A DNA stretch of 61,921 bases, filler included, from Stramenopiles sp. TOSAG23-6 (GCA_900128565.1; 4 parts of 4 records of this genome joined end to end with filler, not necessarily neighbours in it); one strand, 5' to 3'. Counted from the first letter of the whole stretch, positions 15,397-46,548 are shown. Program-made: numbers and translations. Notes: generated from the sequence alone by a model not told the origin.

Positions 15397-15450
15397 GTAT
15401 GTTTTATTTTTTTTTCAAATTCGAGTTTTTTTTCATACGAAATTTTGTAC
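15397..15450 (+). mobile_element. Introner-like intron, truncated by contig end
   Basis: T|GTATGTTTT...CATACGAAATTTTGTAC. Confidence 0.85.
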
Positions 15451-15550
15451 NNNNNNNNNNNNNNNNNNNNNNNNNNNNNNNNNNNNNNNNNNNNTTAATT
15501 AATTAANNNNNNNNNNNNNNNNNNNNNNNNNNNNNNNNNNNNNNNNNNNN
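15451..15550. other. Artificial contig linker
   Basis: N-run + TTAATTAATTAA (stops in all six frames) + N-run. Confidence 0.97.
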
Positions 15551-18402: not shown

Positions 18403-18549
18403 TGAAGTTCTTTGTTAAACCTCGTTATTAAAATAAACAAGCACTTAATTTCCTGGTTTCATAAAACATATTTAATAACGAATTGTATAACATCTCTATT
18501 CTTTTTGATTAGATTTTATTATTATTTAAGAGACAATGAAACATTTTAT

Positions 18550-18646
18550 GTAGACATCCAGTTTCTAATTTTTTTGTTTTTTTTTCATAGTAAATTTCGT
18601 ACCTAAAAAAATTATTAAATTTTTAAAATATTTTCCTGAAATACAT
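18550..18646 (+). mobile_element. Introner-like element outside coding sequence (calpain 3' UTR orientation)
   Basis: AT|GTAG...AATTTCGTACCTAA...TATTTTCCTGAAATACAT. Confidence 0.75.
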
Positions 18647-18659
18647 CCAGCTACATTAG

Positions 18660-20383
18660 CTACATTATAGTACAGTCATCTTTTGACATTGCAGCATCAT
18701 AAGATTTTCGTTTCAACATCCACGCAGGAAAGTCCCATGTATTATGAAAAGATATTTCAAAAATTAAAATCGTTAGGTACACATTTTCGTATGAAAAAAA
18801 AAACTAAATTAAAAATTCATGATGGAAACGTACATGGCGATTTCGTTTCATTTTTTACTGAAGACTTTTTAAATATAGAATATTCAAAATCTGCTAATTC
18901 CATTAAAAATGTTCTATTGGGGTCTATTATCGGCCGTCTTCGAGCTATATATTTATATGCTGCTTTAAGGTATTTATGCTCCTCCGACATCATAAATTAT
19001 GAAAAAATATTTCAAAAAAATACTAAAATTTGTTAGGTACAAAATTTCCTATAAAAAAAAATTATGAAAAAATATTTCAAAAAAATACTAAAATTTGTTA
19101 GGTACAAAATTTAGTACGAAAAAACAATTATGAAAAAATATTTCAAAAAAATACTAAAATTTGTTAGGTACAAAATTTACTATAAAAAAACAATGTAGAT
19201 AAAAAATTGAAATGAAAACGCACATATATGCTAAACAACAACTTGCCGAGCGTGACACACCTGCTCGACAATGCACTAGCACTTTTCCCTGTGTCTGTCT
19301 CACATTGCATATAAATTCTATTGCTTTAAGAAAATGTGGTTTAATGTTTTGTGTTACAGCGTCATCTACAGCAATTCTCATATAAATAAAATCATTTTCA
19401 TGTATTTTGGAAAAATATTTCAAAATTTTTTTTTGAAAAATTTGTTAGGTACAAAATTTCGTACGAAAAAAAAACTTTCCAAAAAAACTTTCCAAAAAAA
19501 AAAATTAAATTTGTTAGGTACAAAATTTCGTACGAAAAAAAAAATAAAATAAAACGTACATGATAACACGGAATGTCTCTTGTTACATTTAGAATGTGCG
19601 TAATACCAATTTGTTTTAATTTTTTAAAACCTAACGCATCATGTCTATCTCCTAAGTACATGAATGTTCTTATCATGTATTGTATAAGAAAAAGAAATAT
19701 AGTAAAACATTTGTTAGGTAGACATTTTTATATATAATGAAAATACTCAAAAAAAAACTTTTTTGTTTTTTTGTTAGGTACAATATTTCGTATGAAAAAA
19801 AATCTACTCAAAAAAAAAAATCTACTCAAAAAAAAAAAAAAAAAAGTTTGTGTAAGGTAAAATTTTGTATGAAAAAATATATATAATTCATAATGTAAAA
19901 CTACATGGACGGTTTATCATAGACAATTCCACCTCGTACAAAATTAACAATCTCCGCTGGCAATATTTTGGATTCTTTATATCGTTGAATTATTGTTCTT
20001 TTTCTATTTTTAGGGTTAGGGTTTCTATGTATTGGTGTTGATATTTTCTTTATTTTTTTTCTATCACTCTTACTTGATGTTGCTTTTTTCTTTTTAATCA
20101 TTTTATGATGTCGAACTTTTGGTGAATGTTTTTGTCCTGAATGTTTATTTGGTTGTATCGTGTTTTTTTTTACAGTAGATAATGATACACTGTACCTTCG
20201 ACCAATTTGACTGCTGCCTCGATTACTTTTACTATTGTTTTTCTTTACAGTAGATGATAATATAGGTAAACTATTTGCTCGCCGAAGCCTATTTTTTGTA
20301 TTTTTTGTATTCGCCATACTATCTTTAGGTAGCATATTCAGCACAGAACGGCTCTTGGAAAGCTTTACTGCACGTTTCGACAT
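18660..20383 (-). CDS. Dual-specificity phosphatase with basic N-terminus and C-terminal CTIM (exons 20383-19905, 19674-19560, 19399-19224, 18991-18834, 18736-18660)
   Basis: Spliced product PSMIRTFMYLGD...GITHILNVT...VHCRAGVSRS...AYMM...RRPIIDPNRTF...CTIM*; requires four GT-AT introns. Confidence 0.9.
18737..19904 (-). mobile_element. Four GT-AT introner-like introns in DUSP: 19675-19904, 19400-19559, 18992-19223, 18737-18833
   Basis: Each has a GT donor, 1-3 core/branch modules and an AT end; removal restores the DSP motifs. Confidence 0.88.
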
Positions 20384-20466
20384 TTGTAAGACAGCTTTAT
20401 CTCACGTGTAAAGTAATTAGTGTCATTTGTAAGACAGCTTTATCTCACGTGTAAAGTAATTAGTGT
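20381..20466. repeat. 43-bp tandem duplication spanning the DUSP start codon
   Basis: CATTTGTAAGACAGCTTTATCTCACGTGTAAAGTAATTAGTGT x2. Confidence 0.9.
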
Positions 20467-21171
20467 CATGGAAATTTGTTCTTTTGTAGTTTTTACAGAA
20501 GAATGTCGAGACAAAGAAGCCCTTTATTTTGGTTATACCACGTATGTACAGAAAACGGTGTATAGCCTTTTAACGCTGCTATTCGAAAAGAGTCTCAAAT
20601 GAACAACATCTATTCTATTGTGCCATTTTCGATAGTCGTCGATACCCTATACGCTTTTTTATTGCAAGTCAAAAAGGTAAAAAATTGTGAAACGTTCAAA
20701 TTTTCTATATTACGTGTCCTACCGTACTCTATCTAATATTCATATCGCCGACGGCGGTATATTAAACTATATTTACTATGAAAAAATAATAACAGCGTAA
20801 TACTAAAATGAATATATTTTGAATTTATAAATTGTATTTAACATTCGATCCTTTTTGATCTTTTTTTTTGATTTTTTATGTATACTATACAAATGTTTCT
20901 ATATCATATATATGTTTTCTTTTTGATTTTTTCCTTTTTTTTCATTTTTTTCATTTTTTTCATTTTTATGTACACTATACTTCCTTCATTATGATTTTTG
21001 TACTTCCTTCATTATTTTCTTTCTTTTCTGTCTTTTTTGTCTTTTTTGTCTTTTTTTTAATTTTTATTAAATTTTTATTCTTCACGCATGTGTACACACG
21101 ATATCTGTACTTAAATTTCGTAGTTAAAATTATTCCAAGTGATTTGTTCTGAAATAATAATAAAGAATGGA

Positions 21172-22527
21172 TTATGACTCAGCTGTGTTATCAACTGTTG
21201 CATTATAATCCTGAGATTGAATAGTCTCATCATTATAATCATTAGAATCATTGTATTTGTTTTTCAATAAAGTAGAACAACAACAACAACATGAAGATAA
21301 GAAAATTTGAATTCCAGTTTTTGCGGCATTTTCATTTTGTTTTGTTCTGACATCAACCACAGGTAACATTTTTAACGAATTATAAAGCATTTGAATAATG
21401 TAAGCACCAACGACTATACATATACCTATGAGGACAAAACTCAAGTCTTCTGGACCTCCCCAAAACTTTTCAAATAAGATAAAATCGTAGATACCGTGCA
21501 TTGCAACAGGAATGATGATGATTTTCCAAAATGGCATTTTTTCTTTTAAAAATTTTTTCTTTGCAAGAAAAGCACCAGTAATGATGGCCCAAAACGCATG
21601 AAGTTGAACGCAGCAGATGCCTCGAAGAAAAAGTATACTTCTTATATGATCATGACTACCTAATGCTTTACCTAATACAATAGAATCATGATAATACATA
21701 ACGTTCTCAACGCAGGCAAATGTAGTTCCAGCAATTAAAGCGTAGACTAACAATGCCTTATAGTCAACAACAAAAATATTCTTATAAAAGATCGCAATTG
21801 CACAATATTTTAGCAGTTCTTCGCCAAAGCCAGCTCCAACAAAAGCATTGAAAAATGACTTCCAAGTACATGATCCCATTGGTATTCCTATTGGACCATA
21901 TTCATGGTACCCTCGAAAGCCTAACAAACACATTGGCCCTTGCTCTTTAAACTGATTTTGTATTCCGAGTTTTTCATACATTTTTGCGCATTTTGGATCC
22001 CAACTTACTATCCATTGTTCTAAACCCGAACATCCCATGAAGTTATGTCCCAGAAATAATGGGATAACGAAAATAGTCGTAGTCATACAGACGAGAAGCG
22101 CAAGAGGTATGCTGACGGAAATTTCGTGTTTTTTTACAGCGTAAACAACACCCGTAAAGAGTGGAAGGAGAGCAGCAATTGTACCAATAACAACTGCAAA
22201 TTCGAATTGATTTTCGTTCAAAGCAAGATGAGAAGCGACAGCTGCAAGACCTATGAGACCGAAGAAATACACCCCCAGAACAAGCACAAATGGACCCACT
22301 TCGCCACATTCGCCAAATGCAGACTGGTAGTCAAATATGCGTTTTTTGCCAACACCAGCGGTACCATCTACTACATCAGCTACTTGTGTTGCTGGTACCG
22401 GCACCATGACTTTTTCTGATGTTGTATTACTTGTAGTTACAGCCTGTTTTTGTACACATTTTACATCAGGCATTACTGACGCAGTATTCATCTGATTATT
22501 CTTTATATTCGTTTCTGATGGATTCAT
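21172..22527 (-). CDS. PrsW-family intramembrane metalloprotease
   Basis: Multi-TM; GFGEELLKY, FACVENVMY, LHAFW, MHGIYDF motifs. Confidence 0.85.
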   Translation of the reverse strand: MNPSETNIKNNQMNTASVMPDVKCVQKQAVTTSNTTSEKVMVPVPATQVADVVDGTAGVGKKRIFDYQSAFGECGEVGPFVLVLGVYFFGLIGLAAVASHLALNENQFEFAVVIGTIAALLPLFTGVVYAVKKHEISVSIPLALLVCMTTTIFVIPLFLGHNFMGCSGLEQWIVSWDPKCAKMYEKLGIQNQFKEQGPMCLLGFRGYHEYGPIGIPMGSCTWKSFFNAFVGAGFGEELLKYCAIAIFYKNIFVVDYKALLVYALIAGTTFACVENVMYYHDSIVLGKALGSHDHIRSILFLRGICCVQLHAFWAIITGAFLAKKKFLKEKMPFWKIIIIPVAMHGIYDFILFEKFWGGPEDLSFVLIGICIVVGAYIIQMLYNSLKMLPVVDVRTKQNENAAKTGIQIFLSSCCCCCSTLLKNKYNDSNDYNDETIQSQDYNATVDNTAES

Positions 22528-23053
22528 TTTCTTTTAATTACACAACAAATATTGATTTGTACTCAAAGAAGAACTAACAAAAAATGTTTGAGGAACTCAA
22601 AACTACTAGCAAAACAGTTTACTGAGTTCCTCGCGAACTTCCGCCGAACTTCTCGGTGAACTCTCAACTGGACTGGCTCGAAATAGTTAACTACGGAATT
22701 TTGTACCAAAACACACAAAATCCGTTGATTTCATTCATATTTTCATCATATTTGTACCTTTTTATGTTACCCGGTAACCAAATCTGACAGTAACAATTGT
22801 GAACATTGTGAACCGACAATTATTATTGTGGGATGATGATACCAAGAATGAAAATTTAATCATCAACACACACATTTTTTTTATTTCTTTACAATTTCCA
22901 TCTTTTACCGTTCAAACATTTCATTTTTTTTTGTTTTTTTACCTTTTGTTTCTTGCTTTCAAAAATTCCAAAAATTCCTAAAAACAAAAAAACCTAAAAA
23001 CCAAAAAACCTAAGAAAAATATTTTTTTCCTCAAAATAATATCAGTTACGCTT

Positions 23054-24065
23054 TTACATATTAATACTTGAACTTTCTTTTAGTAAAGTATTCATTGATA
23101 CTTTAAGCTTTAATAACTCTGCTTCTTTTTTTTCAATCATTCTTTCCAGTTTTCTACGCTTTACAGATCGTCTGGATCTTGATTTGTCTGTATTGTGAAA
23201 AAATATTTAAAAAAAAAAAAAATGTTAGGTACAAAATTTCGTATGAAATGATTTTTTTTTAAATTTTTGTTAAAAAACATACATCTATCCACCATTGTAC
23301 ACAAATCAGGCCCAACGATGCCTTTAGAACTACTAAGTGGTATTTCATATGCTTCATCGGCGTTAAATGGTTTAATTTTATGATCTTTTCCTAAAATCTC
23401 CGGACAATGTATTTTGGAAACATATTTCAAATTTTTTTTTACCAAAAAAAAAAAAAAATTGTTAGGTACAAAATTTACTATAAAAAAAAAAAAAAAATCG
23501 ATTTTTTTGTAAAAAAAAAAAATAAAACAAACATGCAATGTGCCCTCACTAATAGATTTAATGCTATACAACAAATCATATGCTACTACTTCATTTATAG
23601 TGGAATCCTTCTTATATTTCGGATGTTCAGACACGAATTTCCGCATCCATGCTGCATTTGTGAGAAGCTCCCCAGTAGCCCTCATGACAATAAATTCCAA
23701 ATATTTGTTTACAGTAAGTCTAGTGGTATGTATTGTGAAAAAATATTTTTTTTGTTTTTTTGAGATTTTTAATTTTTTTTGTTTTTTTTTGTTAGGTACA
23801 AAATTTCGTACGAAAAAAAAAAATTAAATTCAAAATTGAAAAAAATGTAACATACACTATCACATTTGATGGTATCTAAATAAGCATGAATCAGAGGAAC
23901 AAAACCAGGGAAGAAGTTCCCTTTTCCAATGAGTATTTCGAGAGCAGTCATTTCAATTGAGCCATCATGTATTTTGGAAAAATATTTAAAAAAAAAATCT
24001 AAAAAAAATCGTTAGGTACAAAATTTCGTACGAAAAAAAAATTCGATTTTTTTTTTTTTTTTACC

Positions 24066-24096
<31 letters not shown>

Positions 24097-24724
24097 AAAC
24101 GTACATGGTCACTATGTATCGCACATTTTTTTATTCCTTTTTCCGATTTACATTCATTTTCAGATGGAGGCGCTAAATGTTTACGAAACCAAAATTTTTC
24201 TTTATTCACTGCATCAACGTTATACAATGTAGAAAAATATTTTTTTTGGTAAAATTTGTTAGGTACAAAATTTCGTATGAAAAATGTTTTAATTTTTTTT
24301 TTTTAGGAAAAAAAAACTACATGCGCTCTTTTAAGACTTTCATCAATCTTTGATATTGGTATATACATATTCAAATCGAATGCAAGAATAACACGAGATA
24401 CAAGAACTACAAAGACAGTAAATGCAGCATTTTCAAAGTCTGTTATTTGAGCTTCCATTGGTCGAAATTCTGTTCGCCATCCAATGTGATGATGTTTTTT
24501 CTGAGAATTCGTGTTTTCTTCATCCTCTGAATTATTTTTTGTTTTTTTTCGTTTTCTATTTTTTTCTACATAAGAGTCAACTGAAGAAATATCATCATCA
24601 GAATGATGAGAAGGAGTCGTTGGAGGTGAATCAGGCATATGATTGTTGTTCGACGCTGGTGGAGGTTTCCAACGGACAGTTTGCCAATTTGTAGACTGAA
24701 TATTTTCCCATGTATTGTGTAGAA

Positions 24725-24768
<44 letters not shown>

Positions 24769-26180
24769 TCGTTAGGTACAAAATTTCGTACGAAAAAAAT
24801 GTTTGGAAAAAAAAAAAAAAACATACAGTGATCAGAGTCTCGCTCGTCGTCTAGCTCAACACGCTCTTTAAACACAACTAATGGATCCCGGACGAAAAGA
24901 TGAGCAATATGAGCGGCTAAAACATCATCAACGCCACCTCGTTTCAACTCCTCTTTCACGTCTTCATCAATAGCAACTGGTACATCATTATAGCATTCAC
25001 TACATGTATTGTGAAAAATATTTTTTTTTTTTTGATTTTTTTTGTTAGGTACGGAATTTCGTACGAAAACCAAAAATAAAAATTAAAAAAAAAAATAAAA
25101 CATACATGAATGGATGTCTTTTCCTGCTTTATGGTTACATATAAAATGCGAAATAGAATCGTATCTAGACTTGTACAGACGTTTTTCACCAAATCCTGCC
25201 ATTTCTTTTTTAGATTTTGTTCCATTGAGTTGTACTGCAGGTGGAGAATGACTTCGAATAGCGGAGCAAGAATCACCAGCATAAATGCCACTCTCTTCAG
25301 GTGTGCGATCATCAACACTAGCAGCAATATAACGCCATCGAGCATCCGTATTGAGTAATTTCCCGCGCATGATAGGACATGCTGCTGTTAATGCCAACAT
25401 GACTGGAGCAAATACTGCTAAAGCATCATACAAATGGCGGGACTCTTGGATATCACAACATTGAAAAGTAACCTGCAGGCAACAGCAGCCCATGCCAAAC
25501 GCCATACAGTCCATGTGCACTTGACGATCACTTGGTGGAGTATTCGTATCTCGAAATACTGGAGCAGTAATATTTACACGACTACCTCGACGCATTCTAA
25601 TATTTTGTGTTAATGTTTTGAAACGAGGGTGAGGATTAATACACTCATCCGGAACATAAGCAGATTTTGAGTATTGACCAGGGACTTGTGCCTTGGGTAC
25701 TGTAAAGTCACCAACACCTAATAGCGGAAAGGCAACGGTAGATATCGCTGATTCATTGGGACGTAAAACTTTGATAAGTCGATTACGACGATTACGCATA
25801 TTACGTTCTACTGCAATGAGATCACTTGTGTAACCACCGTATGCAGTACGTGGTGTTGCTTCAACCATCCATGAACCGTATTCTACATGCCAGTTACACT
25901 CGCCCAGTAGAGCATCTTCTCTACCTCTTTGATTCTCCATGGTAGATAGTTCTTCAATTATTTCATGAGCACGTAAAGAAACGCGCACGCGCTTTTCTTC
26001 GTGGTCAAAAGCAACGATGTGATATTCAACTTCGTCACCCCACATAAGCACATCACCTTTGAGATTACGCATTCTACGCCAAATTGTCAAGAACTGTTGA
26101 ACACCGTGCTCACGAACATACTTTATCACGGATAGAGAATCATTCCATGGTAATGGAGTCCCTGTTTCAAGAAAACCCAT
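23054..26180 (-). CDS. GCLC: Glutamate-cysteine ligase catalytic subunit, 8 exons
   Basis: MGFLETGTPLPW, WGDEVEY, MDCMAFGMGCCCLQVTF, KSRYDS, ENIQSTNWQT, GWRTEFRPME; stop 23054 after removing 7 introns. Confidence 0.95.
23188..25105 (-). mobile_element. Seven introner-like introns in GCLC: 25004-25105, 24710-24826, 24222-24320, 23967-24104, 23728-23855, 23407-23532 (GT-AT) and 23188-23282 (GT-AG)
   Basis: Shared core TACGAAATTTTGTACCTAAC; removal gives HSCSECYND, DHWENIQ, RAHNVDAV, SDHDGSIEM, DSTTRLTV, LHCPEILG. Confidence 0.9.
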
Positions 26181-26573
26181 TTATATAATACAAGTTCTGA
26201 CAATGAATCACTAAAACAATACAACTTATTCTAGTGTGTTGTGCCACACAACTTGTGGAGAGAGATGATCGAAAACAAAAGATATAAGAAAAACACATGT
26301 TTTTTTCGTTCGTTTCTTGCGGTGGCCAAAAAAATAGCAAAGTTTTCGTGTTTTTAGTTAGTTCCGTCATTTTTTAATTTTTAAAAAAATTTTAAAAACG
26401 TATTCTTCGCGTATCTTCAATAGCTACTCGGCGGAACATATTATTACTACACATTCCCTCCTTCAGATTATGAACATTTCGATATTCTAACATTTCTGAA
26501 ACATTGTAAAAGACATCGTCTGACTAGAGATAAATTTGGTAACGTGAAATTAAATATCGCTATATAAAGTGAT

Positions 26574-27578
26574 ATGGAAAATAAGAAACTTGTTGCGTGT
26601 TACGAAAGTTCTATATTTGGCAATACACAGAAATATGGCATTCCGTTAGTGTTTGATCAACTTCAACTAATACAAAACATATTAGAAGAAGAGTTCGACA
26701 TAACAGAAGAAGAGTCGAACTGTGAAAAAAGGAAAACAATAATGAACATAGTAACGCTCATACGAAAAAATTTACAAAAACTCATATATCAACAACCAAA
26801 TACATTTAGAAGTAAATCAGTTAAACAGCAAAGGACGGCACAAAACATATTTGTGAAGTTAAAGAGTGTCGTGTCAACATTATTTCTAAAGTATGAAACG
26901 GAATTTTCACATCTAAACAATGACAACATAAGTAAAATAATCGAAACAATAATTCGAGAAAGCATAATGACAGTAGCACATACAATTGATCCAATTCCGT
27001 ATTTACTAAACGCCGGATTGTATAAAGCAAAAGGAAGCATCAAAGGTAGAAGATGTCCTTGTTTAGATTGCCAAGAAAGTAGTAAAAAAATACACGATGC
27101 AAAACAAATTCAAAAGAAAATACTGAATCCAGCATATATAATAAAACAATATAAACCACAGAAAGATCCATTTCCAATATGGTATATATATTCTAACCCA
27201 GACGATATTCATGGCTATAAAACTGAAGAAAAAAAGAAAAGTCTTCATGTAAAAAATCCAGAAATATGGGGATATGATCCTACAAAGCGAATAGGATATA
27301 GAGTCCGACACAAAATAACAAAAAAATTTCCTGTATTTGGTGAAGGAGTTTTTGAAAAATATAAAGGAGCAAGACGAGTCTACATAAATGCATTAAACAA
27401 AATTGAACTAAACAATTTAGTCTTTAGTCAACTTAATTATGAACATCAAAAAAAGTTACGTGAATATATCAAACTAATGATAAACCGTAGCAAGCTATGT
27501 GTTCCCGACAGTGGGTGGGTCGGACATGGCCAAACATATACCTATGGTCATGCCAAGCCAAGTTTTTTTGAAGTGTGA
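26574..27578 (+). CDS. Hypothetical protein
   Basis: 334-aa ATG-initiated ORF with CPCLDC; no family recognised. Confidence 0.65.
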   Translation: MENKKLVACYESSIFGNTQKYGIPLVFDQLQLIQNILEEEFDITEEESNCEKRKTIMNIVTLIRKNLQKLIYQQPNTFRSKSVKQQRTAQNIFVKLKSVVSTLFLKYETEFSHLNNDNISKIIETIIRESIMTVAHTIDPIPYLLNAGLYKAKGSIKGRRCPCLDCQESSKKIHDAKQIQKKILNPAYIIKQYKPQKDPFPIWYIYSNPDDIHGYKTEEKKKSLHVKNPEIWGYDPTKRIGYRVRHKITKKFPVFGEGVFEKYKGARRVYINALNKIELNNLVFSQLNYEHQKKLREYIKLMINRSKLCVPDSGWVGHGQTYTYGHAKPSFFEV

Positions 27579-27994
27579 ATCAATATGTTAAACAACTTCA
27601 ATATAAATTAAATATATCTGGGGGGTTTTTTCTTGATATATTATTATTTCACTTATATGGCACCATATATCAACATATGCAGTGTGTCGGGCGCTATTCT
27701 TTTCCTTGATAGTTTTTGTGTTTGTACTTCCTTCAAGATTTTGATTATGCTTCAAAATTCAAAATATTTTCATGCCGCGTCCCATGGCATTTGTTTTATA
27801 TAATTATTTAAAATCGTCTTCCATAAGAGAGTTTTATCACTGGTTGAACTTGTTATGAAAAAAAACAGGATTTTTTTTTGGATTTATTTCGAATTTTTCG
27901 TCGAATTTGACAAGCTTGAAGCATCCTCCTAAAACTACTATAGTGTTGACAAGAATGCAGTAATTAGATAAAATGCGTTGACTTACGAAATTTA

Positions 27995-29114
27995 ATGTCG
28001 GAAGTCGGAGTTGCCGCTATCACCAAGTCTTCAGATCCATATTACGGGGCGCGAGATAGTATCCAAGTGTCACTTCTCGATGCTGAGCGGAACTGCAGTG
28101 AGTTACAGTCTCTACTGAGTTCTTTACAATCATCTTCGAGTTCACGAGATACTGTTGTCCCAAAACTGAACTCAGCATCATTGCAAAGTGCCAAAGAAAT
28201 GACTACATCGATATGCTCTGAAGTGGCTCATTTAGAGGTTTCTCGTCAGGAGCTTTCTCGTGCAGTCTCGATGGCAAAAAAAGTAGAAAAGGAAGAAAGC
28301 AATGAAAAATTTCGTCATCTGGATGCCTTGGAAATTAGTACCCGTGAAAGTTTCATGCGTGATTTGAAATTTCGAATTGAAGAAATGAATCATGTACTTG
28401 ATAAAGCAACTACATTCCTCGATGCTGCCGAGGAATCGTTTACATCGGGTGGAGTACAAGATTCATTTGCCAATAAACATTTCAATGCATTGAAAACAGT
28501 CAGTCATAAAAACACGATAAACAGCAATCATAGTAATAATAGTACCCATATGCATTCTTCTTCCCCGTATGGAATATTTGATAAAAAGATAACAATGGAT
28601 GATTGGGATGATGAAGAAGAAACTTCTGGACTCATTCCTGTCATGACAAAAGACCATCGTCGGAATTTATTTGGACATGTTGACACGTGTATGTTTTCAT
28701 CATGAATTTATGAATTTATTTTTTTTTTTATTTTTTCGTACGAAATTTCGTACCTAACGAATTTTTTCCACCCATTTTTTTTTCCACAGTACATCTGATT
28801 CACACTTAGCTGTAGGTGGAGGACGTCAATGTATTGTCGATTTAGAGATGCAGCAAAATGAACATTTGAGTAAAATGTCTGATGCTCTACATCGTATTGG
28901 TGGTTCTGCATTAGCCATTGGAATAGAGCTCGATGAGCACAAGAAAATTGTGGATACCCTTGAAGACGACGTTGATACAACACAGATGATGATGGATCGA
29001 GGCTTAGGCAAAGTGAAGGATTTGTTAGATACCGACTCAAATTGTCATATCACCATTATATTTGCTCTCATAGCCATTGCAATACTTCTTATTATAGCAA
29101 TAGTTTTTTATTAA
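27995..29114 (+). CDS. Qc-SNARE, syntaxin-6/10/61-like, 2 exons
   Basis: DPYYGARDSI N-terminus, SNARE motif QNEHLSKMSDALHRIG...IGIELDEH, C-terminal TM. Confidence 0.85.
28689..28794 (+). mobile_element. Introner-like intron in syntaxin (GT-AT; in-frame GT-AG alternative 28687-28789)
   Basis: GTATGT...GTACGAAATTTCGTACCTAAC...TTCCACAGTACAT. Confidence 0.8.
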
Positions 29115-29208
29115 GTTTTAAGTATGCTTTAATTTATAAATAACCAAAAACAAAAAAGTAAAAGAAGTGGTTGCTTATATTTGGAGATTTTCAATTCTTT
29201 TCTTAAAC

Positions 29209-29682
29209 TCAGTCAACAATATTTATCGCTGGACCCTCTTCCACACGTTCAAGAGTTTTGTGTGTTATATCTGTTACTATATCTGATGTTGCATTAGTTA
29301 CTGACACGTCAGGAGTTTTTTCATTTGTCTTATTTTCACAGGAAACAACAGCGCTTTCCTTGCTTTTAAGCTGCTGAACCTGATACTCAAAGCTCGTAAT
29401 GCACTCAACAGCGGCTTGCAAAATTGAACCTTTATCTCGCTTTCCAACATCCCATCCAAAATCATCTAGTGTAGCCTTCATTTCCTTCATAAGTACATTA
29501 ATTTGTTTTGTTCGTTTTCGTTCCACTTCACGATGTAACGCTTTACTTTCCTCTACCGTACGTCGTCTCTTACGACCGACTTTTTTTTTCTCAGGTGGAG
29601 TGCCGACTGGAATCACTTTACCATCGCCTGTCGCCATGACAGGTAATGGTTCTGGAGGTGGGGGAGGCAGAGGGGAGGACAT
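29209..29682 (-). CDS. bHLH transcription factor
   Basis: HREVERKRTKQIN...DKGSILQAAVECI. Confidence 0.85.
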   Translation of the reverse strand: MSSPLPPPPPEPLPVMATGDGKVIPVGTPPEKKKVGRKRRRTVEESKALHREVERKRTKQINVLMKEMKATLDDFGWDVGKRDKGSILQAAVECITSFEYQVQQLKSKESAVVSCENKTNEKTPDVSVTNATSDIVTDITHKTLERVEEGPAINIVD

Positions 29683-29782
29683 GTATTCTATACGATTACT
29701 CTTTTAATCTAATATAATACACATTTGTGAAACACCATTGGGTAGACTGTGGCAGATTGAGTACGTAATTACTAATTTTGAT

Positions 29783-29813
<31 letters not shown>

Positions 29814-29823
29814 CAACAACAAC
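29783..29823. repeat. (CAA)n microsatellite
   Basis: Imperfect AAC/CAA run. Confidence 0.9.
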
Positions 29824-30068
29824 TCAAAGGGACTTGGACTTCTAAAAAAAAAAGCCCTAACCCTTGGCAAAAATTCTTATAGGAGATTGATCACAAAAAT
29901 GGTACAAATTTTCTTACTTAAAAAATATAGCTATTTTTCACTTCGGTTACATTTTTTTCATGGTAAAATTAGTAAGCCCTCCATATCAAACAAATCAATA
30001 TCAACAAATTTGAATTACTTGTAGCAAATTTCATTGAAAACCAAACAAATTAGCATATACAAGGAATC

Positions 30069-30914
30069 ATGGATACAGAAGGTGGTGTTGCAGAGGAAAA
30101 AGGTTCTTCTTCCCCTCGCGTTTCAGCTCAAGTCTCTTCCGTCGTTCAAAAGAATGTCGGAATTCGTGTTTATCCTCCCGCCCTCGATTTCGTTGGTGTT
30201 GAATTTGGACCTCTTTACGTTATGACAGTGTCTGTTCAAAACACAGACTCAAAAGTGCGAAGAATACGCATAAAACCACCCACATCAAAGTTTTTTCGCT
30301 TAGCTTATTTTCCAAATACAGCAGTAGCCCCAGGTCTAGACGCTGAATTTGAAGTTGAATTTCAAGCCTTAGTCGAACAAGATTATCATGACTCATTAGT
30401 TGTTTATTCTGGTGATGATGAAATAGAAATTCCTTTACATGCATATACCCCAGCACCCAATATTGAGTTTGAAACATTTTGTGATCTTGGTGTGGTCGTT
30501 CTTGGTAATAAAATCTCAAAATTTGTTGAATTTACTAATTTTGGACATCGACAAGGTGAAATTTCGATCGAGTGCGACGATACTAACTTTATTATATCAC
30601 CGACGAAATTTGTGATCGGTCCTAAAGGTCATTTCATTGATCAAGATAAAGACGGTCGTATGGAAGAGGATGAATGGGTTGATTTCCCACGTGATCAATG
30701 GTCTCAAAAAATTCGTGTTGAAATTGTTGGACAAGATATTGGGCCATTGAGGGCTTTAGCACAAATCAAAGTAAAAGGCGTTGATGGTTCCCGGGTTCTT
30801 GATATGAATGCTGAAATTGTCGATCAACGACTTGAGCTAGTCCCGACTGGAGGTGGAGGAGGAAAGGCCGTCACATCAATTCCATTTGGTATCATGTATT
30901 TTGGGGAGAGTCGT
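30069..30914 (+). CDS. CFAP47-like ASH/Ig-fold ciliary protein, first exon, 3' partial
   Basis: IRVYPPALDF...VSVQN...RIRIKPP...VAPGL...EIPLHAYTP; family intron donor at 30915. Confidence 0.75.
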
Positions 30915-30968
30915 GTATGTTTTATATGAATTTCTAATTTAATTTTTTTTTTTTGGTTTTCATACGAA

Positions 30969-31068
30969 NNNNNNNNNNNNNNNNNNNNNNNNNNNNNNNN
31001 NNNNNNNNNNNNTTAATTAATTAANNNNNNNNNNNNNNNNNNNNNNNNNNNNNNNNNNNNNNNNNNNN
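30969..31068. other. Artificial contig linker
   Basis: N-run + TTAATTAATTAA + N-run. Confidence 0.97.
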
Positions 31069-32713
31069 AATATTTCAAAAAAAAAAAACTTAAATTTGTT
31101 AGGTACAAAATTTCGTACGAAAAAACATCCGAATTTGAAAAAAATAAAACATACATGCTTGAGAATCAATAATATTTTTACATAAAATAGTTTTTGTGTT
31201 TTTTGTAGTATTGCAATTATCAAGTTGAATCATATTTGTATTATCAGACATTATATTTTTTTCATTGTTTGTGTTTTTTGTAGTATTGCAATTGTCAAGT
31301 TGAATCATATTTTGATCGCCATTCCTAAAATGACGCTGCGTACGCAAAAACTCTTGTGCTATATCAGGTTGTTCAAATCCATCAATTTGTTTCTTTTTAC
31401 AATCCGGGCAAGTAATGTGAAAAATATTTTTGTTTTTCGTTAGTAAAAGAAATTCGTTAGGTACAAGATTTTCATACAAAAAATAAAAAAAAATTAAAAA
31501 TGATGAAAACATACAAAACCAATCGCCTTTGGGTAAACTAACGAGAATTGGTTGTAAACAAAACATATGAAACCCTCTATCACATTTATCACATAAAAGC
31601 AGTGAATCATCGTCGCTATCATGTATTTTGAAAAATATTTCCAAAAAAAAAACTTAAATTTGTTAGGTACAAAATTTCGTACGAAAAAAAATCGATTTTT
31701 TTGTTTAGGTACAAAATTTCGTACGAAAAAAAATCGATTTTTTTGTAAAAAAAAAAAATAAAACATACATCTACAATTTTACATATATGACATTTCGCTG
31801 CACCGAACGCCAATTCTAAGAGAGCAAATTTCACTGGATTTCGTGCGAGTTTTGGTAATGATTTTTTTACCATTTTGGTTAACTTTTCGGTTTGATCATC
31901 TGATCGAATCACTTTTTTTAATTTTGGTCCAATTCGAAATTCTATATTTTCAGGATTTTTCATTGGTTTTTGATTCTGACTAAAACTAAAACAAAAATTT
32001 CTTTCTTTGTGCCATCTTGAAATCATTTGAGAAATTTGATTTCGTCTAAGAGTTACTTCGATTTCAGTAATATCAGGTGGGCCAGGTACCCTTCCTCGTC
32101 CATTGCTACTTTGTATTGTGTCATATATCTTTTGTTGTTTTTGATCATATATCTTTTGTTGTTTTTGATCATATATCTTTTGATGTTTTTGATCTTCGGT
32201 CCATCCGTCTATATCAATTGTGTAATCGTCACATACAAAAACTTCAGCAAATCCATTTGTTTGACGAGGTTTAACAAGTCGCCAATTATAGAAATAACGT
32301 AGTGCTGAATGTGAGAAATATTCAGAATTTGCAAAATTATGCGAAAGAAGACAACCATCTGCATAATCGACAGTATACTTTTGGTTACCGTGGCTTGCGA
32401 TCACTCGACCTACGTACATGTATTTTGGAAAAATATTTCAAAAAAAAAAAACGTTAGGTACAAAATTTCGTAAAAAAAAATAAATTCGAAATTGAAAAAA
32501 AATAAAACATACCAACATTTTTCTGCAACCCAATGTACACTAACAACATGGTCAAGAATATTCAAAACATCTTCTCCAGAACAATAACCTTCGGACAACT
32601 CTCTTTTTTGATACTCGACACACGTACTGTGAAAAAATATTTCAATTTTTTTTTGTTAGGTACTAAATGTCGTATGAAAAAAACATTACATTAGAAATTC
32701 ATATAAAACATAC
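31069..32713 (-). mobile_element. Introner-like introns in Tudor/PHD gene: 32622-32713 (GT-GT), 32418-32512 (GT-AT), 31621-31768 (GT-AT), 31410-31514 (GT-TT), partial 31069-31154
   Basis: Shared core and 3' box; removal restores Tudor WY.G and PHD cysteine spacing. Confidence 0.87.
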
Positions 32714-33746
32714 TTTGTTTGTACGCTTTTTTTTTTCTTTCTTCGCGAGCAGCTTTTATAGCTTTACGTTTTATCTTTGCTCTATAGCTTTGCGAGGAAT
32801 TATGGATGAACCGTTTCGCATATTTACATCTAATCGGCTGTGTCTTCCTTCGTGTTTTATTTTTTTGTTTCCTATTTTTTGAGGAGAGTGACCACCAAGC
32901 CCCAAGGTTAGTACCAACATCACCAGTTCCAGTAGATGTCTCACATTCCCAAAGCTTACCTGGATATGAATCTATGCCAACGTTTATACGAAATAAATTG
33001 TTTTCAAAATGAGTGAGGACACCTCCATGGACCAGTTTTTCTATGAGCGTCACTTGTCCCATAGCCTCCTTTGCTGCATGTAAAGCAATAGATGCAGATT
33101 TTCTTGCTTCAATGCTAGATGGCGAATCGGGTAGTGGAGGTGGTACACACTCATCTGAACTACTTGTGAGACGTCTCTTTTTCTTTCGTTTTTTAGAACT
33201 TGAGGATTGCCTCCTCTTCCTCTTCTTAATCTTTTTACTATTTGATTGTAACGGTATTTCTGTTTTGTCGAGTTCGTTCCTCTCCTTCTTAATATTTTTA
33301 CTATTTGATTGTAACGATATATCTGTTTTGTCGAGTTCGTTGAGTTTGTAGAGCACTTTTCGACATTTTCCTTCTGCTAAGTTATTCTGCAGCGACAATA
33401 ATTGCTCATGAGTCAAATTCTGCTTTTCGGTATTATCTGCTAAGCTATTCTCCAGCGACAATTCATCGTTTTTGATCTCCAAATTATTCATTGTTTCGTT
33501 ATTTTGTTTCTTTTTTGCACTCCGCTGAATTCTCTTCATCATTTCTGCTTCTTTTTTTATGTATTGGGCAAAAACACCTAATTCTATGTCACCGTCGTCG
33601 TATGCAATGTCAAATACAGTGCGGGTACTACCTTTATATGTTTTTATATTGCGGATGTTTATTATCTTCCCTGCATAGTACCCTTTTAGCTTCTTCCATC
33701 TAGCATACACGCGATCGCCATCTTTGTGAGAGGTTCTATTCTTCAT
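31155..33746 (-). CDS. Tudor-Tudor-PHD chromatin reader, 3' partial (exons 33746-32714, 32621-32513, 32417-31769, 31620-31515, 31409-31155)
   Basis: GDRVYARW..YYAGKI..YDDGD; VHWVAEKCWYVGRV..YTVDYADG; CHIC...LLLCDKCDRGFHMFCLQP...GDWFCPDC. Confidence 0.88.
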
Positions 33747-34153
33747 TATATTATCATTAATGGTGTTTCTACCTAGGAGGAGGACATCATCAAGGCGATA
33801 TACCCACGTATTGCAGAGATCGACTTTTGACGCGCGCGAGTTGAGTGATTGGATTGATCAATTGACTCCAGTTGAACCCCGATTTCGTGGACCACACTAA
33901 ATTTCGTTGTAAGTCTAGTAGTATTAGATTGAATATTTTTATGTTTTGTTTATTTATAAAAGTGATTGAATATTTTTATGCATGATTACAATACTTTGTT
34001 TCTGAACATTTTACAAACAACTAGGAGTTATTTTTTATATAAACTCTGTAAAACTGTAAAATCTCTATAGATATTTTGCGCTCGACAAATTCGAAATTCG
34101 TTTATTACGAAATTTGGTACAAATTCAATTACAGTCGTTTCTTCCAAAACAGG

Positions 34154-34766
34154 TCACAAAGAACTTGGAGAGTTTTTAGATATGGGATTAGTCCACCTAC
34201 TTTCATCAGTTTCCGCATTGTACCAGTATTTTTGGCCTATTACTATGAGAATATGATACATAAAATAGTTGTGAGTTATACAATTAACTTTCAATGTCAA
34301 AAAACGAAGGAAAAAAAAAAAAAAAGGCATTTGAAAACGTACCTGTATTTGGACAGATTGCTTCTTCCCATTTATCGTTATCGTGAAGCAAACGAGCTTC
34401 TTTCGAATTTTCTCTATAAGCGAGTTCTTGCGCCCTATTCAAGTTCTGGTTTGTCATTTGGACGTCTCTCTGTTTCATACACGGAGTAGAACCAGTGGAA
34501 TGGCGTTGAACCAATAGAAACGCCCCAACTAAAAATAGAAAATACGTTGCTGATGCAAGAAAAATTTGAGTTGATACTTTGGATACATTACCCTGCTTAT
34601 ACGTTAACTCAGGGATAAAGTCTTTTTGTGTCTTTGCTAGTATGCCCAGTATACCCAGGAAGGTCCCTGCAACTGCCGAAAATATACCACAGAATGTGCA
34701 ACACTCAGCAGATAAACAAACGTGAGTTTTAGGAGCAACACTGTCAAAATTCCAATCGTCAATCAT
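34154..34766 (-). CDS. Two-TM RNASEK/V-ATPase subunit f-like protein with C-terminal WW domain (exons 34766-34343, 34235-34154)
   Basis: CLSAECCTFCGIFSAVAGTFLGILG + second TM; GT-AG intron 34236-34342 joins WEEAICPNTG-QKYWYNAETDESRWTNP. Confidence 0.7.
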
Positions 34767-34911
34767 TTCTTCTTCAAATGCTACAAAAATACACCCACTC
34801 AAATACGAAGCTTAATAATCAATAATGACAATGCAAATATTTAATAGCACTTCTCTACTTCCTACAAAGTCTTAACAAAGATGATGAGAGAGAAGGATCG
34901 TTCACTTCGAC

Positions 34912-34933
34912 TTGATTGGCCTGATTGGCCAAT
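34912..34933. promoter_or_regulatory. Clustered CCAAT/ATTGG boxes in divergent promoter
   Basis: TGATTGGCCTGATTGGCCAAT between divergently transcribed genes. Confidence 0.45.
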
Positions 34934-35144
34934 AATTCAATTTCGATTTGCACACACACATTTTTTGCATTTATTTTTGAATGCGAATTTAGCTTAGGGT
35001 TAGGTTTTTTTTAGGAGTCATTTTCAATTTTTAATTCAATTTTCATATCATTTCAAGGAATACAAAAGAAAAATGTTTAGGTAAAATGAGTGAGAGTAAT
35101 CACAAAACGATGAACCAGATTTCAGAAATTATGTGTCAATAATC

Positions 35145-38100
35145 ATGCCCAAACCTACCACTGAATCGCTCTTCTATGATGTTGATGCACTTCGGTCTGA
35201 TGATTTTCCTCACTTAAACACAGAGATATATGCAGATTATGCAGGTGCTACTTTACCAGCAAGGTCTCAGGTGACAGCAGCAACACGTGATATTCTTGAG
35301 TATCCCTTTGGTAATCCTCATTCACGAGGACCAGCTTCCCAAAGAACATTGTCTCGTGTACAGCGAGTTAGGGAAATGGTACTGGAGTACTTTAATACAT
35401 CATCCGACGATTACTCTGTAATATTTACCGCTGGTGCAACGTCAGCCCTTAAAATGGTTGGGGAGTGTTATCCTTGGAGTAAAGAGAGTAATTTTTTTTA
35501 CTTAAAGAATAGCCACAATAGTGTCGTAGGTATACGAGAATATGTACTCAAAGCTGGCGGATCTTTCAAGGCTATACATCCGTATGAATTATTTACTGAA
35601 CATGATAATACAATTGAGTCTGATCATCAGAATCCCAACTCCAGTTTTCATAAAAAAAAAAAAGATAAATGTAGCAGTAATTTAGTGGCATTTCCCGCAG
35701 AATGTAACTTTAGCGGTACGAAATATGACTTAAGTGTCATTCATTCTATTCAAAATGGTAACATCTCTAAAAGAAGTTCGAATATTTGGGGAAGTGGACG
35801 GTGGCGAATTTTACTCGTATGTCTCATGTATTTTTGTAAAATATTGTACAATTTTTGATTTTGTTTTGTTACGTACAATATTTCGTATGAAAAAAATATT
35901 TTTTTTTAACCTACGTCTTTACCATTTGATTTCAAATTTAATTTTTTTTCACAGAAAATTTTGTATTTCATGTTTTTTTTTTGTGACATATTTTTCACAG
36001 CACTTGATGCTTCTAAATATATTTCAACGAATACTTTAGACTTAGAGAAATATTCTCCTGACTATCTCGTGTTTTCGTTTTATAAATTATTTGGATTCCC
36101 TACAGGTATCGGTGCATTATTAGTAAAGCATGATGCTGCACAAGCTCTATGTCAAAATCAAGTGTATTTTGGTGGAGGTACTATTCTTAGATTAGGTTCA
36201 GAGGGATCAGAGTTATCTTCTCTACAGCGTAAATCTGCAATGAATGAACGATTTGAACATGTATGTTTTATTTTTTTTCAAATTCGATTTTTTTTTCATA
36301 CGAAATTTTGTGAACAATAAATTATAATGCCATTATAGAACTTGAGCATGGATTTGTGTTTCTTACGTCAATTTTGAAGTATCTCAATACAAACAAATTG
36401 CTTGATGCTCAAAATGATGATTATCTCAATGCATATAAAACACAAAGTACAACAATGGATAAAACAAGAATTGATACAAACCAAAACGACACAACAATGG
36501 ACAAAACAAGAATTGATACAAACCAAAACGACACTTTACAACGAATAGCAAAATTGGCAAAAACAGCAATGAAACTAGTGAATCATCAAACATTTACTCT
36601 TGCAACGTTTTTATGGTCACAAATGACAAATTCTTCATTTCAACATTTCAATGGAAATCCAGATACGTTTTCGAAATTGAATTTTTTACCTAAATTTTGT
36701 TCTATTCCAAATTTCGTACCTAATGAATAAAACCAAAAAAAAAATATTTTTTCATAATATTGGTTGTGTTATCTATGGATGGTCAAAAAAAGTAGTACAG
36801 TCACGGATGCAAGGACCAGTGATTACTTTTAACATTATTGACCATCGAGGATTCTTTATTCCGTGTACGTTTTTATCATTCATTTCCATTTTTTTTTTCG
36901 TACGAAATTTCGTACCTAACAATAAAAACTCAAAGAAAAAAAAAATTCACATTACATATACACAAGTAGAAGAAGTACTAAATAAATACAAAATTCAAGT
37001 ACGTAGTGGGTGTTTTTGCAATCCAGGGGCGTGTACGTTTTCGTTTCAATTTCGATTTTTTGTTCGTACCAAACTTTGTACCTAACGAAAAATTTAAATT
37101 TAAAGTTTTTTCACAATACATGCCAGATATTTCTGAATCTTTCGGATGATGACATTAATGCTCAATACAAAGCTGGACATGTTTGCGGTAGTGATATTGC
37201 AGTAGTGAATGTTTTATATGAATTTCTAATTTAATTATTTTTTCATACGAAATTTCGTACCTAACATTTTTTTTTTTTTGAAATATTTTTTCACAATATG
37301 TAAATGGTATGCCTACCGGTGCAATTCGTATATCTCTAGGATCTACAAGTAACATATCAGATTGTGAATTTATAATTTCAATATTACGAAAATATTTTCT
37401 TGTCAAGAAAGATCCAAACATTCGAAATTCTTTCGAGACGAAATTTGGTACAAAATTTGGTACAGATTCAACAAAAAATGTACAAAAGAGTAGTGAGATG
37501 GTTAAAGAGCTTTGGATATATCCTATAAAATCATGCTCCGGAATACGAAAGTCATCTTGGCCTATAACAGCAAAAGGCTTTTTACTTGATCGTCATTGGG
37601 TCATCATTGAAGAAAAAGAAAACAATCTATTCACAGCATTGACACAAAAGAATTGTCCACGAATGTGTATGTTTTATTTTTTTTCAAATTCGATTTTTTT
37701 TTCGTACGAAATTGTGTACCTAACAGATTTTTTTTCAAAATATTTTTCTTAAATACATGCTTAATCCAACCAAACATTCAATTGAGGTATAAAAATAAGC
37801 AACATAATACATTTTGTGGTATCCTTCAGTTGTAGATTTTCATTATTCGTTTCCTTTTTTTTTCATACGAAATTTTGTACCTAACAAAAAAAACATTTTT
37901 TTTGACCAATTTCGAATTTCTCAACTTTTTTACAACACAGGGATGCACCAGGAATGCCTACTTTACATATACCAATATCACAGCTTGGTATTTTAAAATC
38001 ATCAATCAGTAATGCACAAGTGGAATGTGGCACTGAGCAAATTGGAAATTTCTTAGGTACGAAATTTGGTACAGATTCAATTTCGAATAATAGCTTATGT

Positions 38101-39172
38101 TTGAATAAAGCTATTGTATGTGGCAGTCAGCAAAAGATTGAATTTGTCCCAGATGCAGAGAAACAAATTTCAGATTGGCTCTCAAATTTTCTTGGACTTA
38201 CCTCTGTTTTTCTCGCCATACAACCAGAAAAATCTTTTCGAAATTTTGCAAATACAAGAGGTACTATCCTTCTTATCGGCGAAAAGAGTGTGACAGATGT
38301 ACGTTTTCATGATGAATTAAAAAAAATTTCGTACAAAATTTTGTACCTAACATTTTTTTTAGTAAAAAAAAATATTTTTTCACAATATATATACGAAACC
38401 ATGACTCTATCAATAATATACCAAGTGATATATCTGAGTCATCAGTAGGTACTACATCACGATTTAAGAACTTATCTCCACATCGATTTAGGCCTAATAT
38501 TATTATTTCATCTAATACAAAAAATGTACTTTTTCATTATGAATTTCAATTTTTTTTCCATAAAATTTGTTGTACCTGATAACAACCTAATAACAACTTT
38601 TGTATTTTTAACTTTTTTACAGTACATGCGTCTTTTATAGAGGATTCTTGGAATAAAATTTTAGTAGGAAATGTCTTACTAGATTTCGTGTCTCCATGTA
38701 TGTTTTCATTTCAATTTCGTTTTTTTTTTCGTACGAAATTTTGTACCTAACAATTGTTTTTCAAATATTTTTCAAAATACATGCAATCGATGTAGAATGG
38801 TAAATATTGACCAAACCAATGGCAAAGAATCCCCTGAATTACTCATTGTACGTTTTCAACATTGAATGTCGAATTTATTATTTTTTTCATAGAATTTTTG
38901 TTTTCTCTAATGAATTATTTTAGTAAAAAAAACATATATTTTTCACAATATTTACTCTGTCGAGGTATCGAAGGCAAAAATACAAAATCTTATTTGGGCA
39001 CTTGATGAAAATAAATGAAAGACACCATTTGGATATTGATAGAAAAACTTACCAAAAGAAGAATGGTGAATCTGATATTTTAGAAAATTTTGATTGTTCA
39101 AATATTATTTGTGAAAATACTTGTATAAAAATTATTGAGAGAAGGCGCCCACCGGCTTTGTCATTATTATAA
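35145..39172 (+). CDS. MOCOS: Molybdenum cofactor sulfurase (NifS-like + MOSC domains), 13 exons
   Basis: YADYAGATL, GNPHS, FPAECNFSG, SFYKLFGFPTGIGAL, RSGCFCNPGAC, IYPIKSC, RFRPN, CNRC; continuous after removing 12 introns (intron 2 junction damaged). Confidence 0.93.
35817..38953 (+). mobile_element. Twelve introner-like introns in MOCOS: 35817-36005 (TT end), 36261-~36311 (truncated), 36663-36762 (AT-TG), 36865-36957, 37033-37121, 37207-37301 (GA-GT, or GT-AT at 37205-37299), 37667-37758, 37832-37940 (AG end), 38299-38390, 38526-38627, 38698-38782, 38848-38953 (TT end); unlabelled ones are GT-AT
   Basis: Shared motifs; removal restores conserved MOCOS motifs at each junction. Confidence 0.87.
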
Positions 39173-46448: not shown

Positions 46449-46548
46449 NNNNNNNNNNNNNNNNNNNNNNNNNNNNNNNNNNNNNNNNNNNNTTAATTAA
46501 TTAANNNNNNNNNNNNNNNNNNNNNNNNNNNNNNNNNNNNNNNNNNNN
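46449..46548. other. Artificial contig linker
   Basis: N-run + TTAATTAATTAA + N-run. Confidence 0.97.

Follow-up and report, generated by a model that had tools for sequence, protein, structure and literature searches.

We analysed a 61,921-nucleotide stretch of DNA from Stramenopiles sp. TOSAG23-6 (GCA_900128565.1; four parts of four records joined end to end with filler, hereafter the window), whose genes are interrupted by short repeated introns that usually end in AT. Between positions 18737 and 38953 we delimited 29 introns, 27 of which form one family of ~90-230 nt and two of which (K1 and M8) are ordinary GT..AG introns. Our preferred explanation, to which we give a probability of roughly 0.6, is that the family is an 'introner' that resembles a miniature inverted-repeat transposable element (MITE), makes up nearly all introns here and inserts with a 2-bp target-site duplication (TSD), the second copy of which serves as the acceptor.

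Architecture of the intron family

Members of the family share the layout GTAYGTTTT .. CGTACGAAATTTTGTACCTAAC .. TTTTTCACAATAC + 2 nt. Read in the sense direction, the A/T-rich start GTAYGTTTT is often followed by CAAATTCGA, and then come the T-run CGTACGAAATTTTGTACCTAAC, a variable A/T run, GAAATATTTTTCACAATAC and two terminal bases. The donor is conserved, with 27 of the 29 introns starting GT. The conserved core CGTACGAAATTTTGTACCTAAC includes TACCTAAC, a putative branch site that lies 32-64 nt from the intron end in most copies, and TTTTTCACAATAC is a pyrimidine-rich 3' block. This shared architecture was seen by repeat finding, motif scan and profile search, and an nhmmer profile built from 21 introns gave 51 matches in the 62 kb. 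The elements (~85-230 nt) lack an open reading frame (ORF) and occur in high copy number and in both orientations, the orientation sample being small. A hairpin in the core (GTAC..GTAC) was considered and dropped because the common change of CGTACG to CATACG breaks its pairing without compensation.

Similar introns could also be immobile and old, held alike by unusually long and strict splice signals as in yeasts and Ostreococcus, and GTAYGT and TACCTAAC do resemble yeast-type signals. We consider this improbable. Full-length identity between copies in different genes or pieces of the window reaches 86% (median 66%; 253 pairs among 23 copies), while their 30-nt flanks are 10-37% identical, i.e., unrelated. 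The blocks CAAATTCGA and GAAATAT are conserved outside any known signal, and subfamilies share non-signal blocks (H1, M6 and a cut copy at 30915 all start GTATGTTTTATATGAATTTCTAAT). Furthermore, the 3' half or core has been duplicated in tandem within some copies, with three 65-nt units in A3 (18995-19219) and two cores each in A2 and H3. Copies also lie outside introns, more than 10,000 metagenome contigs match the elements, and long neighbouring genes are free of introns. The introns are clustered by gene, with 12 in the gene for molybdenum cofactor sulfurase (MOCOS; within 3.8 kb) and seven in that for glutamate-cysteine ligase (GCLC), and none in the long ORFs at 39256-44271 (1671 codons), 53645-61885 (2746 codons, Piezo-like) and 10828-14367 (1179 codons, kinesin motor domain).

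Environmental sequences also bear on abundance. From one seawater metagenome, 10,571 contigs map to an 8.4-kb stretch of the window at a likeness of at least 90%, nearly all of them on elements, and the summed depth is 10^3-10^4 in element bins versus ~2-7 on unique exons, a sum to which related organisms may contribute and which cannot be read as a copy number. The flanks of metagenome contigs diverge exactly at 32417/32418 and at 32512, the two ends of intron H2. A search with the core pattern gave one match among metagenome contigs, none in public genome contigs and none in viral contigs; the matching contig (L001), from another metagenome, has an intron of the same type with AT at both the exon end and the intron end.

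Intron boundaries and the non-AG acceptor

Introns were spliced out conceptually by a single rule, according to which the first base is the G of the donor and the last is the second base past the terminal TAC. Of the first 16 introns examined, 14 had their two longest frames fused by this rule; G3 and H4 followed once they had been re-placed, the former by frame and homology and the latter by frame only, so that all 16 were then joined. When spliced in this way, GCLC showed no gap against 12 homologs at G2, G3, G5 and G6 (near-gapless at G6), and MOCOS was gapless at M1, M3, M4, M5, M6 and M7 (12 homologs) and at M9, M11 and M12 (11 homologs). Because two conserved proteins are restored without gaps at these 13 homology-checked junctions, we regard the non-AG ends as real. 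Three placements in MOCOS are less certain, since the product is 5 residues shorter than its homologs at M2 and 3 residues longer at M10, and M8 lies in a variable region.

The 29 introns end in AT (20), TT (3), AG (3), GT (2) and TG (1). In every family copy with a 3' block, the cut falls 2 nt past TAC, TAT or CAC; H4 and M2 have lost part of this block. A canonical GT..AG reading was rejected. AGs located 5, 16 or 22 nt ahead of the true end are skipped in S1, H1, M10, M5 and M4, and in H1 and M10 splicing at the AG 5 nt upstream would break the frame. The CACAG 5 nt before the end of M1 is likewise skipped, and its use would add three residues within the conserved LLDA motif. S1 is the only intron that permits a GT(GTATG)..CACAG alternative, with one extra codon. 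If the introns are instead read as AT..AC, shifted two places to the left, the protein often stays the same; at G2 a conserved His rules this reading out. U12-type AT-AC introns carry an ATATCC donor, and their branch site TCCTTAAC is found ~10-26 nt before the 3' end. They were rejected on account of the family's GTAYGT donor, the greater distance of its branch motif in most copies, and the exclusion of AT..AC at G2.

Judged by homology, the family and its position-defined non-AG acceptor are solid. Under our preferred explanation, each element would carry its own donor GTAYGTTTT, branch site TACCTAAC and pyrimidine-rich 3' block TTTTTCACAATAC. Insertion would duplicate a 2-bp target, mostly AT within CAT/G, and removal from the RNA, presumably by the spliceosome, from the donor G through the end of the second duplicate would restore the original frame exactly. 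The acceptor would be set by position, not by AG, at 2 nt past the terminal TAC or 6 nt past YYYYCA[CT]A; AT would be its usual and apparently preferred dinucleotide, with TT, GT, TG and AG also accepted. We tentatively suggest that the intron-removal machinery of a stramenopile lineage widespread in the sea may no longer read the acceptor dinucleotide for this whole family, which would comprise thousands of introners, placing the 3' cut by position and passing over AGs. If so, any 2-bp target could become a seamless new intron, and the combination of a canonical donor and branch site with a position-defined acceptor would offer a natural system for studying splice-site choice in the second step.

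Annotation based on GT-AG rules fails on these introns. The closest protein in a large database, P0123, is a public model of this very MOCOS gene (35376-37749); it translates into introns M2, M3, M5 and M7 and omits the conserved VCVIYG exon, so that proteomes of this lineage are likely corrupted where they were predicted with GT-AG-based tools. It should be noted that M3 starts ATACGTTTT where GTACGTTTT is expected. Since P0123 reads the same letters, a sequencing slip of this assembly alone is unlikely.

The introns and other copies are as follows. Pairs such as AT/AT give the last two exon bases and the last two intron bases.

18737..18833, minus: A4; ccat/GTACG..ATACAT/g, AT/AT; frames join; nhmmer match over the full length, E=4.7e-13
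18992..19223, minus: A3; three tandem 65-nt 3' halves; tat/GTGCG..ATTTAT/g, AT/AT; frames join
19400..19559, minus: A2; two cores; AT/AT; placed by frames and nhmmer
19675..19904, minus: A1; degenerate multi-core copy; AT/AT; placed by frames
23188..23282, minus: G7 (GCLC); ACAG end at the family's usual position; exon AT, intron AG; frames join
23407..23532, minus: G6 (GCLC); donor GTTTGT; AT/AT; near-gapless against homologs
23728..23855, minus: G5 (GCLC); exon GT, intron AT; gapless
23967..24104, minus: G4 (GCLC); AT/AT; frames join
24222..24320, minus: G3 (GCLC); GTAGTT..TTGTAT, AT/AT; a length of 99 alone makes RAH/NVDAV gapless
24710..24826, minus: G2 (GCLC); exon CT, intron AT; upstream copy kept (conserved His); DH/WENIQSTNW gapless
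25004..25105, minus: G1 (GCLC); AT/AT; frames of 358 and 232 codons join
28689..28794, plus: S1 (syntaxin-6-like); exon GT, intron AT; CACAG 5 nt upstream out of frame with this donor
31414..31514, minus: H4; shortened 3' end (..CACATT); TT/TT; boundary by frame only
31621..31768, minus: H3; two cores; AT/AT
32418..32512, minus: H2; exon TG, intron AT; left side without a repeat, GTA repeated on the right
32622..32713, minus: H1; ACGT end; exon AA, intron GT
34237..34342, minus: K1; canonical GT..AG intron that lacks the family core; AG/AG; splicing it out restores WEEAICPNTGQKYWYNAETDESRWTNP, which we take to be a WW-domain-like motif
35817..36005, plus: M1 (MOCOS); sense copy with end CACAGCAC+TT and a nested antisense copy; exon TC, intron TT; a length of 189 alone makes WRILL/DASKY gapless against 12 homologs
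35826..35915, minus: antisense copy nested in M1; full-length GTAGGTT..AAATACAT, flanks AC / AT; nhmmer match to the core, E=6e-5
36261..36325, plus: M2 (MOCOS); 3' half missing; 3' boundary uncertain (AT/AT if 36325)
36663..36762, plus: M3 (MOCOS); first bases ATACG (A in place of G1), last bases TG; exon AG; NGNP/GCVIYG gapless
36865..36957, plus: M4 (MOCOS); exon GT, intron AT; gapless
37033..37121, plus: M5 (MOCOS); exon GT, intron AT; Cys of GCFCNPGAC rebuilt across the junction
37207..37301, plus: M6 (MOCOS); GAATG..ATATGT, GT/GT; GT..AT if shifted two to the left; gapless
37667..37758, plus: M7 (MOCOS); exon GT, intron AT; CPRM/CLIQP gapless
37787..37940, plus: M8 (MOCOS); GT..AG with a family core inside; AG/AG; placed by the frame chain
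38299..38390, plus: M9 (MOCOS); ..CAATAT+AT, AT/AT; gapless
38526..38627, plus: M10 (MOCOS); AT/AT; ACAG 5 nt upstream passed over
38698..38782, plus: M11 (MOCOS); AT/AT; FVSP/CNRCRM gapless
38848..38953, plus: M12 (MOCOS); ..CAATAT+TT, TT/TT; PELLI/TLSRYRR gapless
18546..18650, plus: non-coding copy between convergent genes; AT/GTAGAC..ATAC AT/; nhmmer E=1e-5
6786..6856, plus: I1 (IFT81); copy without the 3' half; homologs in the Protein Data Bank (PDB) did not fix its 3' boundary
31069..31154, minus: H5; 5' part only, cut by an N linker; exon end AT
47021-46970, minus, and 47207-47248, plus: two intergenic core fragments without the GTATG and ACAT ends

Identity of exon and intron ends

An earlier reading made from the sequence alone had pointed out that the last two intron bases often equal the last two exon bases. 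This is borne out by 18 of the 29 introns (AT/AT 13, TT/TT 2, GT/GT 1, AG/AG 2), or 19 of 30 when the intron of metagenome contig L001 is added. The earlier count of 15 matches in 27 introns described the right pattern; its figures become 18 of 29, or 16 of 27 once K1 and M8 are set aside, the two canonical introns that supply both AG/AG pairs. The exon ends in T at 23 of the 29 introns.

The excess of identical ends was measured against shuffled pairings with the marginals kept, in a small sample of one window and one metagenome contig. All 29 introns gave 18 matches against a permutation mean of 10.6 (P=7e-5); without K1 and M8, 16 of 27 matched against 11.1 (P=0.005). At homology-fixed junctions only, the figures were 7 of 14 against 3.2 (P=0.003). 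Exon AT is associated with intron AT (13, 7, 1, 8; Fisher P=0.014), and among introns not ending in AT, with the L001 intron in the set, five of nine match the exon end (P=6e-4).

Five of the 11 mismatched pairs, as had been proposed, fall at synonymous third codon positions (M1 ctc/tt, M3 cca-g/tg, M4 ccg-t, M5 gcg-t and S1 acg-t), so that either copy could be kept there. The remaining mismatches are protein-changing or cannot be tested in this way: G2 CT/AT, G5 GT/AT, M7 GT/AT, H2 TG/AT, H1 AA/GT and G7 AT/AG. Support for duplication from ends other than AT consists of TT/TT twice (one by frame only) and GT/GT once, plus the two AG/AG pairs of the canonical introns. The 2-bp duplication is moderately supported, and if the AT/AT pairs reflect splice signals, the case for it rests on these few non-AT matches.

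A less likely account, although one of appreciable weight, is that the same family spread via RNA, either by reverse splicing and reverse transcription or by gene conversion, without any duplication. The AT/AT pairs would then be two splice signals, CAT/GTATGT and ACAT/G, a G-to-T version of MAG/GT .. CAG/G. The restored exon junction has C, A, T / G in 15, 18, 23 and 18 of the 29 introns, respectively. The classical proto-splice site is MAG/R, and since CAT/G mirrors its shape with T for G, the splice-signal reading of the AT/AT majority stays alive. Where the two ends differ, the intron carries AT in 7 of 11 pairs, all in-gene copies but one are in the sense orientation, and both GT..AG introns follow an exon-end AG, as canonical introns tend to. 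Independent signals, however, would not be expected to produce TT/TT in M12 and GT/GT in M6, both fixed by homology, or TT/TT in H4, and the excess of matches remains without the canonical introns. A nested antisense copy, described below, cannot arise by sense-strand reverse splicing.

Several observations on the exon and intron ends count against the duplicating element that we prefer. The excess becomes modest when K1, M8, H4 and M2 are all left out (14 of 25 against 10.5, P=0.028). A left-hand repeat is missing in H1, H2 and G7, and the donor G in M3. In addition to the predominance of AT in mismatched introns, the exon CT of G2 sits in a His codon conserved among the aligned homologs; the intron AT of G2 therefore cannot be an untouched duplicate, and AT is favoured at the acceptor in its own right, apparently by selection or as a part of the element itself. 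The earlier suggestion that the second copy becomes the acceptor whatever its sequence was thus too strong.

Inverted ends, nested copies and the mode of insertion

The ends of the element had been described as near-complementary. Setting the 5' consensus GTATGTTT against the reverse-complemented 3' end (GTATTTTG or GTATTGTG) showed that the complementarity is real at the consensus level but short, with GTAT/ATAC perfect and 5-6 of 8 positions matching beyond it. Such ends fit a short terminal inverted repeat (TIR), yet they are little proof of one, since only four bases are perfect and the 5' half is at the same time the donor consensus. What the sequence-only reading had proposed, a DNA element with a 2-bp duplication, holds as regards a single family, excision 2 nt past TAC/TAT and covariation of the ends beyond chance, whereas its inverted repeat shrinks to four bases. 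The classical superfamily with a 2-bp TSD is Tc1/mariner, which duplicates TA; it was rejected since the duplicate here is AT (also TT and GT) and never TA.

In M1, the sense copy is interrupted in its 5' part by a complete antisense copy. A nested copy on the opposite strand argues for insertion as DNA and is not expected from reverse splicing. The non-coding copy at 18546-18650 has AT/AT flanks. Further points do not favour our preferred explanation. Among the contigs listed, no spliced RNA contig was found, the listed joints being repeat-driven only. Over H1 and the terminal part of M1 (3'), the listed contigs from RNA runs are colinear with DNA; since such libraries can contain carried-over DNA, this speaks neither for nor against splicing. 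Furthermore, the metagenome contigs listed contained no clean empty-site joint, and no transposase was seen.

We think it very improbable that the elements are removed without a spliceosome, either from DNA, as are the internal eliminated sequences (IESs) of ciliates, or from RNA with paired ends, as are the nonconventional introns of euglenids. The non-AG ends, short boundary repeats and complementary termini are also found in such systems, as far as they are covered in the consulted parts of PMC6221363, PMC12621601 and PMC11282704. Against this stand the conserved U1/U6-type donor and the branch motif that most copies have 32-64 nt from the end. In thermodynamic folding, the four terminal pairs reach a probability of at least 0.3 in only 8 of the 29 introns, leaving end pairing weak in 21; this is also a point against our preferred explanation, and together with the conserved donor it led us to reject the euglenid/diplonemid nonconventional class. 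Ciliate-type IESs are missing from somatic DNA and bounded by TA, and many of the lineages that have them use a ciliate genetic code; they were rejected because DNA contigs of an independent metagenome retain the elements, the boundaries are AT and not TA, and the long ORFs are open in the standard code.

Element-like DNA also occurs within exons and between genes. A MOCOS exon has a ~27-residue insertion that is missing from 11 of 11 aligned homologs and whose DNA (38025-38110) resembles the middle blocks of the element, as do 37404-37470 (MOCOS) and 34073-34130 (intergenic). The three stretches have in common the motif ACGAAATTTGGTACA[AG]ATTCAA after AAATTCGAAATTC and may be exonised element fragments; in MOCOS, two of them are read as protein (..GTKFGTDS..), of which the latter falls within the ~27-residue insertion. 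A minus-strand intergenic core fragment at 46958-47033 is flanked by an 8-nt direct repeat, TTCCTCGG, which may be due to chance or to a different insertion event.

Comparison with known introns of transposon origin

The mechanism proposed here is already known in Micromonas, Aureococcus, Amoebophrya and Fritillaria. According to the relevant passages of PMC11282704 and PMC7789003, which summarise Huff, Zilberman and Roy (2016), the introners of Micromonas pusilla and Aureococcus anophagefferens are non-autonomous DNA elements, short and bounded by TIRs and a short TSD, that have given rise to thousands of similar introns; one splice site comes from the element and the other from the duplicated target, and the mRNA is restored exactly. 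The family in the window is likewise made of short repeated DNA-element introns with exact restoration. In those two algae, as these passages present them, the introns are GT/GC..AG, the TSD must supply the AG, and the TSD of Micromonas is 3 nt long, whereas the present family uses a 2-nt duplicate, usually AT, even though it is not AG.

Introns of Amoebophrya have direct repeats of 3-5 nt, inverted repeats of 8-20 nt and no dominant dinucleotide, and U1 was not found, as stated in the sections consulted of PMC7789003. They resemble the present family, on that partial account, in boundary-overlapping direct repeats, inverted end repeats, non-GT-AG borders, a MITE-like interpretation and a marine protist host. 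The present family is unlike them in its uniform GTAYGT donor and branch motif, a TIR of ~4 nt, a direct repeat of 2 nt and the dominance of one family. In Fritillaria borealis, introns derived from MITEs with a TIR and TSD use the duplicated exonic sequence as the 3' site, and a U2-type spliceosome accepts AC and AT ends (Henriet et al. 2019, as summarised in the parts of PMC11282704 that treat this species). In this animal the donors are mostly AG (AG-AC, AG-AT) and the intron families diverse, as far as those parts describe them, in contrast to the GT donor and single family found here.

The nonconventional or 'intermediate' introns of euglenids and diplonemids share non-AG borders, junction repeats, complementary ends and a proposed MITE origin with our family, judging from the portions used of PMC6221363 and PMC12621601. 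The same portions describe no conserved donor and stable end pairing, and euglenid introns that leave as circles, whereas the present family has a conserved donor and branch site and weak pairing.

A literature search found no report of such introns in marine stramenopiles of group 3 (MAST-3) or other heterotrophic stramenopiles in main texts, and supplements may hold tables. Of two MAST genome papers, the text of PMC5778133, as far as it was covered, has the word 'intron' twice, in the methods only, and that of PMC12614181, to the same extent, has none; 'MAST' does not occur in the main text of PMC12130899. The novelty lies in the host lineage, in a canonical donor and branch site that are uniform, and in an acceptor defined by position; the 2-nt duplicate, usually AT, and the very short inverted ends differ too. 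The family would add a stramenopile lineage abundant in seawater to the few cases in which transposon-like elements make introns with non-canonical ends. It would be an unusually clean case, in which a single family has kept its donor and branch site conserved and the acceptor alone has been freed, so that the definition of the 3' splice site would become testable.

Genes, host and other features of the window

The window is AT-rich eukaryotic DNA (GC 0.28-0.44 per 2 kb) in four pieces of ~15.4 kb; linkers of the form N..TTAATTAATTAA..N connect them at 15451-15550, 30969-31068 and 46449-46548. Three piece ends stop within element copies (15397-15450, 30915-30968 and 31069-31154), and the assembly therefore seems to break at the element repeat. 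One intron of an enoyl-CoA hydratase gene could be split between pieces 1 and 2, with its halves at the end of the former (..TTTTGTAC) and the start of the latter (AACAATTTT..ATACAT).

The gene content is eukaryotic and in part ciliary, including IFT81, CCDC113/96-like, kinesin, calpain, Piezo-like and syntaxin-6-like SNARE genes besides GCLC and MOCOS. Rfam and tRNA scans of the window gave no match, and hence no small nuclear RNA gene there. P0123 carries the EukProt label 'GSMAST32...', and on the label of this nearest protein alone the host would be a MAST-3-like stramenopile. The second-best GCLC cluster includes a Symbiodinium protein at 53%. A diplonemid or syndinian origin was dropped, since the nearest labelled protein points to MAST-3. 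The stretch is present in both metagenomes and metatranscriptomes from seawater.

A telomere-like motif, AACCCTAACCCT / TTAGGGTTAGG, occurs six times in the window, at 2267, 14544, 15840, 20010, 29856 and 34994. Metagenome contig L001 bears similar motifs. The copies at 29856 and 34994 sit between divergent genes, where the motif may be a promoter element.

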